DNA of 64,000 nucleotides, taken from Octopus vulgaris (lineage: Eukaryota). Position numbers and translations under genes: made by a program. Below, one piece after another: positions 13,656-60,387 of this stretch. The notes beneath the pieces were generated by a model that did not search any database, was not told the DNA's origin, and saw only the letters and a list, made by a program, of their open reading frames with translations. Numbering within the stretch: position 1 is the stretch's first letter; the number at the start of each line of letters is the position of its first letter. Location: contig OX597820.1 in NCBI GenBank assembly GCA_951406725.2, positions 43,090,001 through 43,154,000 of the forward strand. Reading direction: 5' to 3'.

Positions 13656-13896
13656 ATATATACATACATATATATATATATATGTATATATGTATATATA
13701 TATATATATATATATATATATATATATATATATATATAAATACATATATATATATATACACATATATACATATATATATGTATATATATATATACATATA
13801 TATATGTATGTATATATGTATATATATATATATATATTATTGGTGAATTGAAGAAATGGAGCTGAACGCAGATTGAACAGAAATCGTTTTATTTCA

Positions 13897-13976
13897 TTCT
13901 ACACGTGTTTCGAAAGGCACAAATTACCAAAATCCGATTGAATAATGGGACCATATTGTGTCTTTCTCTTCAGGAA
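13897..13976 (-). ncRNA. Type I hammerhead ribozyme (left arm)
   Basis: Reverse complement of the 15368-15447 copy; core intact. Confidence 0.8.
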
Positions 13977-14592
13977 GAAAATAGGAAATCCGTTGGAAAA
14001 ACAAAAACAGAACAGAGGCGGAGCAAAAACAAATCGAACTATGCTCCTAAGAGCCCATGGCGAAACTGTTTATCAGTGTATGTTGAGAACCGGTGGCTGA
14101 AGAATTTAACGGGTCAGGCATCGGTCAATCATGTGGGTGAGGGTGGTGGATGTTCTTTGTGACCGAGAATAAAGTTCTGACTATTTAAGGAATATTGGAT
14201 GTTTTATAAGGGGCGAGAAAAAATCTACTTAGAGACGTGTGTGTGTGTATACTGTTCTATATATGTGTGTGTTGGCGTAGGGGTAGAAAACATTTTTTGT
14301 GTACGTGTGTGCGTTTGATCGTTCGGCTGTCAGTGGCTACTGCCGCGAGAACCGTTGGGTGGCAGAAAAAAAAAATATATGTTATGGTTTATGTGTGTGT
14401 GTGTTCATCTAAGCCTGCCTTGTCAAGGAAACCCCCCGCTGTGAAAAAACCAAGCCCCGTTTGTCTAACAGGAGTAATTCCCCTTGCAGTGGTTAATCGT
14501 AGATATCTTAAAGGCTATTTCAGAATTTGTTACCAAGGGCTATGGGTGCCGGTATTATTTATAAACGCTATTTAAAAGCCAGGATGGAATGG

Positions 14593-14930
14593 TCAATTTT
14601 GTCGGTGGCCGCCATTTGATGGGGGCATCGAAAAGGACAGTAAAAGCCCGTTTACCATCCGGCCTCTGGCAAACAAAATATGGAAGAGTTCGGAGACACA
14701 AAGGTTGCACTGCCTTCTGCCCCTATCAAATGGGAGGGCCACCGACAAAATTGACCATTCCAGCCTGGCTTTTAAATAGCGTTTATAAATAATACCGGCA
14801 CCCATAGCCCTTGGTAACAAATTCTGAAATAGCCTTTAAGATATCTACGATTAACCACTGCAAGGGGAATTACTCCTGTTAGACAAACGGGGCTTGGTTT
14901 TTTCACAAGCGGGGGGTTTCCTTGACAAGG
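14593..14930 (-). pseudogene. C-terminal fragment of a Penelope GIY-YIG endonuclease
   Basis: LEWSILSVALPFDRGRRQCNLCVSELFHIL followed, after a frameshift, by RCPHQ. This matches the PLE W-I-L...C-x-L-C..E...C-R-H pattern. Confidence 0.7.
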
Positions 14931-15367
14931 CAGGCTTAGATGAACACACACACACATAAAACATAATATATATTTTTTTTTGCCACCCAACGGTTGTCGC
15001 GGCAGTAGCCACTGACAGCCGAACGATCAAACGCACACACGTACACAAAAAATGTTTTCTACCCCTACGCCAACACACACATATATAGAACAGTATACAC
15101 ACACACACGTCTCTAAGTAGATTTTTTTCGCCCCTTATAAAACATCCAATATTCCTTAAATAGTCAGAACTTTATTCTCGGTCACAAAGAACACCCACCA
15201 CCTCACCCACATGATTGACCGATGCCTGACCCGTTAAATTCTTCAGCCACCGGTTCTCAACATACACTGATAAACAGTTTCGCCATGGGCTCTTAGGAGC
15301 ATAGTTCGATTTGTTTTTGCTCCGCCTCTGTTCTGTTTTTGTTTTTCCAACGGATTTCCTATTTTCT

Positions 15368-15447
15368 TTCCTGAAGAGAAAGACACAATATGGTCCCATT
15401 ATTCAATCGGATTTTGGTAATTTGTGCCTTTCGAAACACGTGTAGAA
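15368..15447 (+). ncRNA. Type I hammerhead ribozyme (right arm)
   Basis: UUC-CUGAAGA-GAAAGACACAA...UUGUGCCUUUC-GAAAC-ACGU-GUA-GAA; palindromic stem III (ACACGUGU), GUA cleavage site. Confidence 0.82.
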
Positions 15448-56891: not shown

Positions 56892-56952
56892 GATAACTGA
56901 AGAGATGGCGACGTGGATTTCCACCTCGACATCCGAAACTCGGAGTTTTATC
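56892..56952 (+). ncRNA. Type I hammerhead ribozyme
   Basis: GAUAA-CUGAAGA-GAUG...CAUC-C-GAAA-CUC-G-GAG-UU-UUAUC; 5-bp stem I. Confidence 0.75.
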
Positions 56953-59426
56953 ATGGCTACCGAATAATTGTCACATATTACATTTACAGTTATATATATA
57001 TATATATATATGCAAATATGAATGCATGTATATATGTGTGAGTGTGTTTGTGTGTGTGTGCACGCGCGCATATTAATATATATATATATATACTTATGTC
57101 TTATAGTCTATATATTTGTGTGCTTACATGCATAATGGTATCTGTTAAAATATTGTATTTTCGCATTAAACCAATTATTACTTTGCACAAAAACAATACT
57201 TTATGTCGTAACCGTGAGATTTTGAAGTATTTATTCCTCCAGTTACATCATATATAATAGATTGTAGGAAATATGCTGTTCTACAATAAGATGTGACTCA
57301 AGAAAATATGAGAAAAGTAATATATGAGTGTATGTGTGTTTATGTATGAATGCATATACATATATGCATGTTTGTGCATATATGTGTGTCTGTGCATGAG
57401 TATGTATGCATATATATATATATATATATATATGTGTGTGTGTGTGTGTGTGTGTGTGTGTGCATGCCTGCATTCATGTATGTGGGTGTATATATATATA
57501 TATATATATATATATATATATATATGTACGAGTGTGTGTATGTATGTATGTACGTGTGTGTATATGTATGCATTTTGTTCTATGTACGCATGTGTAAATG
57601 AACGCATTCTGTTAAGCATACATCCACAAGCATTCCAGTATTGGTGGGAATATGTATTTATTAATAAAACTATTTAAAACGTTCTCCAAATATTTCATCT
57701 CGGACTAACTGAAGTTTATTTGTTTACAATTATTCTTCAGTTTAATTTTTCTTTCTTGTATTTTTCCTTCAATATTTGTTCCTTTCTGTCATTTCGTTAT
57801 TCCTTTCTTTCCGTTTATATTCGTTTCTGTTATTCTTTTTGTCATTATATTACATTCAGAAATTCTATTTTTCTTTGATGGTTTGTTTCTTCGAAATTTG
57901 CAATCAGAGACCGAAAGAAAGTATATTGTTCTTGAAGCAAAATTGATCTTAAACAAAGATTAGAAGTGCAATAATATCTCCTATGCAGAATTACTTTCGT
58001 TCATCTAAGCAATTTTTTCTTTGCCTCTTAAATATATTAAGTTTTATTGTCTCTTTTGTCAATTTTTACTCTTTATTATTCATGTTGATATTGATGATTA
58101 CAATTATACTTATTTTTCTTACATTTTTAATATTTTATTAGTTTCATATCATCATCAACATTATCACCATCATCATCATCATTATCATCATCATCATCAT
58201 CATCATCATCATTATCATCATTATCATCATCATCATCATTTCCTTCATCATCATCATTTTCATCATCATCATCATCATCATCATCATCATCGTCGTCGTC
58301 GTCGTCGTCATCATCATCAGTAGTAGTAATAGTAGTTGTAGTTGTAGTAGTAGTAGCAATAGTAGTAGTTGTAGTAGTAGTAGTAATAGTAGTAGTTGTA
58401 GTAGTAGTAGTAGTAGTAGTAGTAGTAATAGTAGTTGAAGTAGTAGTAGTAGTAGTAGTAGTAGTAGTAGTAGTAGTAGTGGCGGTGGTGTTGGTTGTGG
58501 TGGTAAGAGTAGTAGTAGCAGCAGCAGCAACTGTTGTTTTTGTTGTTGCTTCTGGTGATAATGGTAATGGGTGCTGTTCGTGTTGTTGATATTGTTGATG
58601 TCATTTTATATGTATTATCGAAACTAGAACGAATTTATATTTAAAATACAACACCGCACACGCAACATAAAACTGAAGGTATAAAAATATTACAAAAATT
58701 ATAGCAAAATATTTAATGGCAATAAAATAAATATTAAGATTTATAATGATGATACTGAGGATGATAATGATGATGAAGATGGGTTTGTTCTTGACGAGGT
58801 AGAAAAGGGAGACGAAGACAAAGAAGGGGATATCTTTTATTGGCATACACACCTATATTTGTTAATGGGGAGCAAAGTCGAGTGAATAAATTAACTAAAT
58901 TTCTAATACTAATGAAAATAAAATTAGGAAATCTACAAGAAGAACAATCATAATCATAATAGCTTTTCTAATATTGTCACAAGGCCAATATTTGCTGTTG
59001 GCGGAATTTTGATGGGCACCATCAACTTCGATGCGGAGGAATAAAAATGTTAGTCGAAAGTGTGATTTGAAATCATGACTTCAAACAACTTTCAGAAATA
59101 CAGCAAATAATTTGCCACCGGCGAAACGATTTTACCCCACCACCGCCCTCTTATATATGTGAATACATCTGTGTGTGTATGTATGTATATATATATATAT
59201 ATATATATATATATATATATATATATATAGAGAGAGAGAGAGAGATGTTCAGCAAATAATTTTGCCAACGCTCTAATGATTTTACCCCACCACGGCCCTC
59301 TCATGTATATATATATATATATATTTATATACACACACACACACACACACACACACACACACATATATATATATATATATATATATATATATATACGCGA
59401 GAAAGAAGCAACAAGAATGGATAGGT

Positions 59427-59517
59427 TTTTAGTACAATCGTTTCATACAAGGACAGGCTTTATTAAAAGTTGCAAAAATTACAGCATATAAATGTGTCCC
59501 GTACTCATCAGCTAAAA
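59427..59517 (-). ncRNA. Type I hammerhead ribozyme (left arm)
   Basis: Reverse complement of 59656-59746. Confidence 0.8.
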
Positions 59518-59655
59518 TACATGTGAGTTCTCTAGACATCCTATTGGTTGAGGCTATACTCATGAACTTTGGAAATCTGTTTATGTTACTTAATTATCTA
59601 CATTACTTCATGAGTATAGCCTCAACCAATAGGATGTCTAGAGAACTCACATGTA

Positions 59656-59746
59656 TTTTAGCTGATGAGTACGGGACACGTTTATATGCTGTAATTTTTG
59701 CAACTTTTAATAAAGCCTGTCCTTGTATGAAACGATTGTACTAAAA
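59656..59746 (+). ncRNA. Type I hammerhead ribozyme (right arm)
   Basis: UUUUAG-CUGAUGA-GUACGGGACA...UGUCCUUGUAU-GAAAC-GAUU-GUA-CUAAAA; 6-bp stem I, GUA cleavage site. Confidence 0.82.
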
Positions 59747-60387
59747 ACCTATCCATTCTTGTTGCTTCTTTCTCGCTTATAATCACCCCACATTACTGTA
59801 TTGTTAAAACAGTATGGTTTTTTTTGGTGCATCTAAGTTAGGTACCATATTCAAGTAAATTCATTTAAATTAACTTGAATCTTCATTGCTTTTTATATAT
59901 ATATATATATATATATGTATATATATATATATATATATATATATATATATATATATATATATATATATATATATATATATGCGTATATGTGTGTGTGTAT
60001 GTGTGTATACAGATTTATGTATATATATATATATATATATATATATATATATATATATCATGCAGTTATATTCATTCACATACACGTACACGAGTAAATT
60101 AATAAGTCAGTTTAATAAACACATAATTAGAATATGCTATAAAAATAAAGCATGATACATGTCTACCTAAGATGAGTTAGGGCACTCAACTCTACTATTC
60201 AGTTGTCTATGTATCATGCTGTGTTCGAATTAAGCCATATGCACTTATGAATATTTTAAACCCTTTTGGTATCGAGAAATGCCAAGCATTGTTTACGAAG
60301 TTACTGTAATGCCTTAATTCTAGTATTATTGTATTTTCTGCCTCTTGTTTGTAACCTGAATGAAAATGTATTTTCCTATCCGAAGTT

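Follow-up and report, generated by a model that had tools for sequence, protein, structure and literature searches.

EN+ Penelope-like elements (PLEs) are known to insert at TA targets and to leave insertions containing an inverted, 5'-truncated copy with a tail on one side only (Craig 2021, PMC8557442; Arkhipova 2013, PMC3846280). The supplement of Craig 2021 (PMC8557442) lists Penelope-13_HM as having hammerheads on both strands and an inverted copy truncated on its 5' side, and the same work counts the way in which tandem and inverted structures arise, together with the bias towards microsatellites, among the points of PLE transposition still open. In Frangieh 2024 (PMC11167929), a purified PLE protein was reported to cut both strands and to extend them, to initiate without homology at two sites bounding the tail and to use uncleaved RNA.

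The window analysed here, a 64,000-nt stretch of the Octopus vulgaris genome, contains four loci (A to D, Table 1) whose inverted arm pairs were all recovered in the assembled sequence. Each locus is the 3' end (pLTR) of a different high-copy PLE family. The order (TA)n, arm, inverted arm, (TA)n proposed by the sequence-only reading was confirmed at A, B and C, with (TA)n on both flanks, and self-BLAST detected no similarity among the loci, as that reading had also stated for these three. Target-site duplications are unreadable within the TA tracts. Identity between arms amounts to 98.5% at A (765/777 aligned columns, 13836-14610 against 14737-15508), 86% at B (93/108) and 98.9% at C (173/175), with 33/39 aligned columns identical at D. 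The tail is confined to one side, as expected for A, B and C, but this is not a property of the three main loci only, since D also has a tail, carried as in B by the left arm. The supposed spacer turned out to be additional 5' sequence of the longer arm rather than a separate part. At locus A, the left arm (running from 3471 back to 2552 on the 3626-bp unit of L094) extends 170 bp beyond the right arm on the 5' side, and the "spacer" is 94% identical, in antisense, to residues 837-883 of the family-A endonuclease ORF. Within the same arm, 14580-14627 has been swapped for a mirrored version of 14720-14767, the region around the junction. The left arm of C runs from 4227 back to 4053 on the L127 reference, and the two arms overlap by 5 bp at the junction. 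A fifth copy is not inverted and shows, in order, the tail, the 5' leader and the ORF start (YSMKNIPIP...RWKAFF), then a jump to the hammerhead (12987-13037), the tail-less end and TA.

Table 1. Positions of the inverted arms and associated features in the window.
Feature	Position	Strand	Remarks
Fifth copy, family B	12563..13079	+	not inverted
(TA)n target tract, left of A	13656..13837	.	
A, left arm	13836..14767	-	antisense, tail-less, 5'-truncated family-A copy
A, type I hammerhead motif, left arm	13900..13973	-	core at 13973; cleavage predicted to follow GUA at 13900
A, secondary template switch in left arm	14580..14627	+	
A, "spacer"	14635..14775	-	coding end of family-A GIY-YIG endonuclease
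A, right arm	14765..15663	+	sense, unit positions 2721-3626
A, hammerhead motif, right arm	15371..15444	+	
A, tail, right arm	15509..15663	+	155 bp
(TA)n target tract, right of A	15664..15816	.	
D, left arm	38049..38140	-	antisense family-D end including tail (about 38049-38104)
D, right arm	38144..38220	+	sense, tail-less, cut off within hammerhead core
(TA)n after right arm of D	38221..38267		
B, left arm	56704..56872	-	antisense family-B end with 64-bp tail (56704-56767)
B, right arm	56873..56989	+	sense, without tail; hammerhead motif 56897-56947, followed by (TA)n
(TA)n target tract, left of C	59363..59395	.	
C, left arm	59392..59566	-	antisense, tail-less; hammerhead motif 59511-59433
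C, right arm	59562..59893	+	sense, L127 positions 4013-4339
C, hammerhead motif, right arm	59662..59740	+	
C, tail, right arm	59782..59893	+	112 bp
(TA)n target tract, right of C	59894..60058	.	

Outward-facing type I hammerhead motifs, composed of stem I, CUGANGA, stem II, GAAA, a short near-palindromic stem III and UH, were found at A and C in either arm and at B in the right arm; the definition of a pLTR hammerhead with a short palindromic stem III follows PMC4209133. One motif per arm had been predicted, but the motif in the left arm of B (56864-56814) reads GAAU in place of GAAA, and neither arm of D holds a complete one, the left arm having no core and only the end of stem I. The degenerate fourth locus announced at 38110-38220 does have inverted arms, without a complete hammerhead and with a left tail that had been overlooked. 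A strict motif scan, with settings chosen after the motifs had been seen, gave 7 motifs in the window, whereas 30 shuffles together yielded 2. Rfam showed no hammerhead family among the 150 of 156 matches listed for the window, and the three scans focused on A, B and C gave none either, so that the ribozyme call depends on the motif scan. The Rfam matches in the window were microsatellite-driven miRNA only, among the same 150 of 156. By single-strand folding, the motifs could not be separated from shuffles (z-scores 0.02 to -1.89). From the geometry of the hairpin, it follows that each ribozyme may compete with its own antisense arm.

Coding copies with RT and GIY-YIG exist elsewhere in the genome for all four families. 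The tandem unit of family A measures 3626 bp and has an ORF of 895 aa without interruption in L092, L094 and L097, where pLTR-ORF-pLTR partial tandems are seen, and the copies of this family are about 99% alike. Family C has an 875-aa open frame whose start lies past the tail in tandem copies (12/20 loci); for families B and D, RT and EN fragments, detected as tblastn fragments only, adjoin the same ends, and family-B relatives also form partial tandems (L216, L220, L223-L225). The A and C ORFs display FDI..FY, PMG, LYRDD and VY.C...Y.G motifs; a Pfam scan of both returned 0 families, a database search 425 unnamed relatives, and a PDB sequence search a single, chance-level match. Families A, B and C carry motifs of the Hydra clade (Craig 2021, which includes Hydra-1_Obim and Penelope-13_HM), namely RWK in C (IRWKT) and in the fifth copy of B (IRWKA), DKT instead of DKG in A (SDKTR) and C (ADKTG), the CxCX5C linker before the endonuclease in C (CKCRIKSKC), and CxxC..E..N..CxH in C (CQLC..E..N..CVH) and A (CNLC..E..N..CPH). 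(TA)n insertion and a canonical hammerhead are also common to them and the clade. Family A departs from the clade by IRWL in place of RWK and by a degenerate, effectively lost CxCX5C, yet keeps (TA)n insertion. The units are 3.6 kb (A) and more than 4.3 kb (C), as against "<3 kb" for the Hydra clade, and stem II, at 31-60 nt, is far longer. By eye, the hammerheads differ from that listed for Hydra-1_Obim, so that the families appear to be others; the proteins were likewise compared by eye with the published Hydra proteins. A placement in the Neptune clade was dropped against the Hydra definition (Craig 2021, PMC8557442). By their sequence features, the parents of the four loci are assigned to EN+ PLEs.

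The loci resemble published EN+ PLE insertions (PMC8557442, PMC3846280) in the head-to-head truncated copy, the one-sided tail, partial tandems, junction microhomology, microsatellite targets and a hammerhead in the pLTR, and the parent ORFs contain long N/S-rich linker inserts, as in Adineta vaga. They differ by longer tails (64, 112 and 155 bp instead of 30-40 bp) and by the predominance of the inverted form, found in 33/37 sampled insertions of family C and 22/27 of family A. Non-LTR retrozymes (bioRxiv 10.64898/2026.07.22.740005) similarly combine a type I hammerhead, kinship to PLE pLTRs and non-coding pieces. However, retrozymes are tandem direct repeats with a presumed circular RNA, whereas the copies described here are paired in inverted orientation, join at unique junctions and have parents with coding capacity; a retrozyme identity was rejected because the hammerheads lie in inverted pairs and not in tandem direct repeats.

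TA was present on both flanks in 34/37 sampled family-C and 24/27 family-A loci. In these two families the outer ends have fixed positions, and only one of the two bears the tail: the left outer end falls at 4227 in 28/33 inverted loci of family C and at 3468-3477 in 21/22 of family A. In family B, exactly one arm bears the tail in 28/31 inverted pairs, and two do in none. The arms extend through the predicted ribozyme cut site. Ribozyme cleavage was rejected as the origin of the truncation points: tail-less arms ending within 10 nt of the predicted cut number 2/22 in A and 1/33 in C, arms shorter than 28 bp being undetected. We infer that duplication of the pLTR carried the hammerhead along onto both strands. 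In contrast to the outer ends, inner junctions are variable. All are distinct among the two-piece loci (32/32 in family C, 18/18 in family A), and most show overlaps of 1-13 bp. Two same-junction pairs, L100/L101 and L108/L109, are segmental duplications with flanks 98.8% identical, and one member of each was left out of the counts.

These junctions bear on the proposal that the loci form a replicating class of ambisense-ribozyme hairpins, for which the uniqueness of junctions had been set beforehand as the test. The result went against it: the junctions of loci A and C occur nowhere else in 2.8 Gb, and the option fails because junctions are distinct and coding parents exist for all four families. 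A non-autonomous hairpin with a ribozyme on each strand could still be sought among the short family-B palindromes, which are stereotyped in size (of 57 copies selected by a stem II pattern, 44 begin 5-60 nt upstream of the core). The locus B junction has three near-matches genome-wide and one look-alike, L064, with the same one changed base at the join. Yet these copies diverge in subfamily marker and in tail-less end point, with no further shared derived variants or flanks; a truncation hot spot and a 2-bp overlap would make such a recurrence expected; and the best 29 other matches are at most 91% identical, with varied junctions. Moreover, the core in the left arm of B is broken, and the A-to-G excess that an edited double-stranded template might leave is absent (7/67 one-arm and 3/26 shared rare changes). 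Even for these palindromes, replication as a hairpin is therefore very improbable. A-to-I edited double-stranded templates were rejected for the same lack of A-to-G excess. Family-B 5' ends seemed to cluster at -11 owing to a deletion in the reference copy, and were therefore counted on another copy; a count of 22 with an inverted partner, inflated by microsatellite matches, was set aside.

An assembly or library artefact caused by chimeric fold-back reads was considered, as none of the contig pieces listed for the public runs, which are short, spans the whole locus-C palindrome. Contigs ending at the tail-less site followed by TA were nevertheless found in three public runs from three studies (16, 4 and 15 contigs), though one run may be the assembly's source. 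Together with arms that diverge from each other, fixed biological ends and a one-sided tail, this makes an artefact exceedingly unlikely. The layout is the known PLE footprint and not a new element class, and the palindromes are very probably a by-product of PLE insertion. The other option of the sequence-only reading, a stereotyped product of PLE integration into TA tracts, is upheld by the fixed ends, variable junctions, coding parents and known footprint.

The two arms of a locus tend to carry the same haplotype. Their divergence is lower within than between loci (0.7% versus 1.5% in C, 0.3% versus 0.9% in A), the minor allele is common to both arms in 34/37 (C) and 7/9 (A) segregating-site comparisons, and where one arm is of the rarer B subfamily (11% of sites), its partner is too in all 7 cases typed. 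Such sharing would be produced by fold-back, whereby the cDNA snaps back, or an antisense template self-primes, and copying proceeds until the endonuclease resolves the product at the tail-less site. Self-priming of the antisense template was proposed in the Discussion of Arkhipova 2013 (PMC3846280) to explain inversions. Fold-back agrees with rare variants common to both arms (10/32 C and 12/22 A loci) and with a surplus of near-perfect palindromes in family C, where the end points of the two arms lie within 12 bp in 7/32 loci against 1.0 by permutation (0/20000 reach 7); the corresponding figure in family A is 0/18. Locus A is an example of a nascent strand folding back and copying over its own junction. 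Shared haplotypes and near-perfect palindromes are, however, equally compatible with one RNA copied twice. Conversely, the tail-less arm is longer at its 5' side than the tail-bearing arm in 11/50 two-piece loci (6/32 in C and 5/18 in A, including locus A), so that neither arm is a plain copy of the other, and 3/30 family-B palindromes (L068, L070, L082) join two subfamilies according to a two-site marker, a result that speaks for priming at both cut ends of the target rather than for fold-back alone. The fixed tail-less end also has an A/T match to the TA target, like a priming site, and extension of both strands by the PLE protein in vitro (PMC11167929) points the same way. Fold-back as the source of the mirror arm is thus rather unlikely; the suggestion that these insertions are fold-back-primed retains its place only as one of two candidate routes. 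Mixed B loci could derive from conversion, or from a source whose two pLTRs differ. Post-insertion central deletions could imitate longer tail-less arms.

We favour a model in which the hairpins are shortened 3' ends of four PLE families, the mirror arm likely being made anew at each insertion from both cut ends. For palindromes arising as PLE by-products, two-ended priming is probably the main route and fold-back a lesser possibility, and both may occur. In two-ended priming, the endonuclease would nick both strands of (TA)n; one free end would prime cDNA synthesis at the end of the RNA tail and the other at the tail-less site, each aided by a few A/T bases matching the primer. Both cDNAs would halt early and be joined through microhomology, and fill-in, at times with template switching between arms, would finish the palindrome. 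The template would mostly be one uncleaved RNA or RNAs from a single source, and occasionally two different ones. In LINE-1 twin priming, two target nicks likewise prime two cDNAs, whose microhomology join produces an inversion. The LINE-1 pieces cover different parts of the RNA, whereas here both pieces start near the same 3' end, so that the sequence is duplicated as a palindrome. The short A/T matches to the target at the priming sites also differ from the homology-free initiation of Frangieh 2024 (PMC11167929). More tentatively, these young families might record priming by both nicks on uncleaved RNA, at two fixed sites matched by A/T bases; the template would mostly be one RNA copied twice and sometimes two different RNAs, and a palindrome with hammerheads on both strands would be the default product.

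In our literature search, with subscription papers mostly outside it, we found no genome-wide test of fold-back versus two-ended priming for PLEs. The value of these loci is mechanistic: the counts make the two routes directly testable, and family A, which is apparently intact with its uninterrupted ORFs and nearly identical copies, offers a ready test system. Stumps of this kind could be mistaken in annotation for MITEs, miRNA hairpins or two-ribozyme devices. If the palindrome is indeed the default product, the octopus genome would contain on the order of thousands of such hairpins, each a potential source of double-stranded RNA.

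Inverted repeats are genuine at loci A, B and C and at a fourth locus, D, as listed in the table below. A, B and C are each flanked by TA tracts on both sides and carry a tail, an extra terminal sequence on one outer end only, so that the shared layout claimed for them by the sequence-only reading (TA tract, inverted arms, one-sided tail) is borne out. At D the inverted arms are confirmed and a tail is present too, but no complete hammerhead was found there.

Coordinates of features in the window
Feature	Position	Arm identity	Tail
Locus A	13836-15663	765/777 columns	155 bp
Locus B	56704-56989	93/108 columns	64 bp
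Locus C	59392-59893	173/175 columns	112 bp
Locus C, tail-less end	59396-59397		
Locus D	38049-38220	33/39 columns	
Family B chimera (fifth copy)	12563-13079		
Hammerhead motif of this fifth copy	12987		
Lone hammerhead-like motif, minus strand	48896		
MITE-like inverted repeat	6631-6740 / 6959-7068	94.5%	
Long open frames	20309-23870; 3839-4708		
Dispersed copies	19133-20143; 61675-62948		

The window also contains a MITE-like inverted repeat (110-bp arms, about 220 bp between them) that has neither TA flanks nor a hammerhead motif, dispersed copies that are 71-75% similar, and long open frames whose motifs look like those of non-LTR retrotransposon RT fragments.

In the genome surveyed (2.8 Gb, 227 contigs) the arms are high-copy repeats, with 1829 (A), 1511 (B), 1699 (C) and 1117 (D) first-look candidates, totals that are not copy numbers; 40 candidates were scored per family. 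Parent elements were reached by tracing copies outward from the arms. The family A unit is 3626 bp long, occurs in tandem in one fetched copy (L094) and holds an uninterrupted 895-aa ORF in 3 of the 20 long stretches fetched. In family C the reference copy (L127) contains an open frame of 875 aa, the ORF start comes after the tail in 12/20 loci, and the protein is 38% identical to that of family A over 555 columns. In family B copies the tail is followed by an ORF in which fragments of RT and endonuclease are found; those with the full pLTR-ORF-pLTR structure belong to sister subfamilies, at 76-82% identity to the window's end. RT and endonuclease fragments also occur in 4/25 family D loci. 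Pfam and PDB sequence searches with the ORFs returned nothing, and none of 425 database relatives is named. The Hydra clade definition in PMC8557442 includes RWK, DKT, a CxCX5C linker, CxxC and CxH. The parents most likely belong to that clade: among the motifs, DKT, CxxC and CxH occur in both A and C, RWK in B as well as C, and CxCX5C in C, RWK and the linker having been lost in family A. Although such a Zn-finger-like linker has been proposed to guide insertion to TA, family A has none and still inserts there. Each ORF also has two long inserts of low complexity, rich in S, G and N in family A (P0001, residues about 495-560 and 635-745) and in N in family C (P0002, about 410-510 and 570-730); the database relatives lack them, and they resemble the N-rich inserts of Adineta vaga Penelopes.

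We mapped 37 of the 40 scored places for family C, and for family A all 30 fetched loci, representing 29 places, or 27 after two pairs of segmental duplicates were each reduced to a single locus; both maps include the window locus. Since the queries admitted no tail-bearing arm shorter than 284 or 464 bp and took the copies closest to the window's, the sample consists of young, longer copies. Within it, 33/37 (C) and 22/27 (A) insertions are inverted, one further C locus being inverted across an inserted piece, and TA lies on both flanks in 34/37 and 24/27. Outer ends are fixed in both families, and the inner junctions of two-piece loci all differ (32/32 and 18/18). The window's own C and A junction patterns, with one mismatch allowed, match in the window only. 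The sequence-only reading had offered either a class of non-autonomous hairpin retroelements, in which identical junctions should recur, or a stereotyped by-product of PLE integration into TA; for A and C these results contradict the former and agree with the latter. Contigs from three public runs of three studies likewise end at the tail-less site, the fixed end of the opposite arm, followed by TA (16, 4 and 15 contigs, with varied joints), although the assembly may have been built from one of these runs and no listed piece spans locus C.

Family B is where a replicating non-autonomous hairpin element finds the sole result leaning its way, a recurrence of the junction. With two mismatches the B pattern occurs at three other places, L064 is a further look-alike, and one look-alike shares a single changed base at the join. 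However, the look-alikes have no common flanks, and neither their subfamily marker nor their end point is the same. The 29 best other matches fetched reach no more than 91% identity, and their junctions vary. Some recurrence is expected, because the end lies 5-60 nt upstream of the core in 44/57 pattern-picked copies. By the features tested, the window loci are the insertion footprint of endonuclease-bearing PLEs. In six of the 57 copies (L203, L205, L259, L276, L285, L288) the 5′ end lies between -278 and -282 relative to the core, adjoining a microsatellite; the reference copy begins there too, and the position may mark a fixed 5′ end of the RNA or delimit a solo unit of roughly 440 bp. In family B chimeras (one in the window; L141, L151, L154-L157) a piece of 5′ leader and ORF start runs straight into the hammerhead end, as a template jump would produce.

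Inverted truncated copies with a one-sided tail are described in sections of PMC8557442 and PMC3846280, the latter proposing self-priming for the inversion. PMC11167929 reports a PLE protein that cuts and extends both strands, initiating on uncleaved RNA at two sites bounding the tail. In our loci both ends sit where element and TA target match over a short A/T stretch, and most asymmetric junctions show an overlap of a few bases (16/25 in C, 12/18 in A). Among B inverted pairs 28/31 have the tail on one arm only and none on two, the tail-less end being blurred by alignment into TA. Fold-back, in which the cDNA copies itself, is a live rival as the main route. Near-symmetric C junctions (7/32 against 1.0 expected by permutation) point to fold-back or to one shared RNA, as do arms about half as divergent within as between loci (31/32 and 20/22 loci), minor alleles common to both arms (34/37 and 7/9 comparisons), and the partners of the rarer B subfamily, 7/7 of which match it when typed, that subfamily making up 177/1546 pattern sites. 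Arms can also become alike after joining, because at locus A a later template switch copied the locus's own junction into the other arm. Two-ended priming is favoured by the longer tail-less arm in 6/32 C and 5/18 A loci, and by 3/30 B palindromes whose arms come from two subfamilies (with 17 and 5 concordant cases, and 5 showing single-site changes). Our preferred reading is that two-ended priming from both target nicks, mostly on one RNA, builds the mirror arm.

At C tail-less ends (e.g. window 59396-59397) a G replaces the element's T right before the TA tract in 18/27 readable loci, and two more loci have an extra CG. The substitution is absent from the tail-bearing arm, and so appears to be a first base that is reproducibly slipped or added without a template. 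C pLTR copies begin at position 3920 of the reference in 8/20 loci (L238, L244, L246, L249, L251-L254), a candidate transcription start about 190 nt upstream of the hammerhead.

An outward-facing hammerhead had been claimed for every arm. A motif scan finds such outward-facing type I motifs in both arms of A, both of C and the right arm of B, but the left core of B is mutated and reads GAAU, and D has no complete motif. A stricter scan gives seven motifs in the window against two summed over 30 shuffles: the five in A-C, that of the fifth copy, and a lone motif with a weak stem II upstream of a TA-rich tract, which may be chance or another family. Rfam, suggested alongside the claim, recognises no hammerhead at the window loci, either among the 150 of 156 whole-window hits listed or in focused scans of A, B and C, and the folding energies of the motifs are unremarkable. 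The templates appear to have been uncleaved, because arms extend through the predicted cut site and few truncation points fall within 10 nt of it (2/22 in A, 1/33 in C). Such motifs are described in PMC4209133 as having low activity and needing dimerisation through stem III. The two copies of a palindrome lie on opposite strands and therefore cannot dimerise within one transcript; each would pair with its own antisense arm instead. Nothing in the sequences suggests selection for paired ribozymes, given the mutated B core and the lack of one at D. A retrozyme identity was rejected for the window loci by comparison with parts of bioRxiv 10.64898/2026.07.22.740005.

The design is already known: the supplement of PMC8557442, in the portion consulted, includes Hydra-1_Obim and gives TA as the target of almost every family, and its entry for Penelope-13_HM has a truncated copy in inverted orientation, with one hammerhead per strand. 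Families A-D appear to be new members. A large number of other hammerhead variants whose stem III is palindromic (CAATTG, CATATG, CGCGCG, CGATCG, CAGCTG) occur in the flanks of many fetched loci (e.g. L190, L222, L117, L128), sometimes within the same TA tract; the genome therefore holds many more such families.
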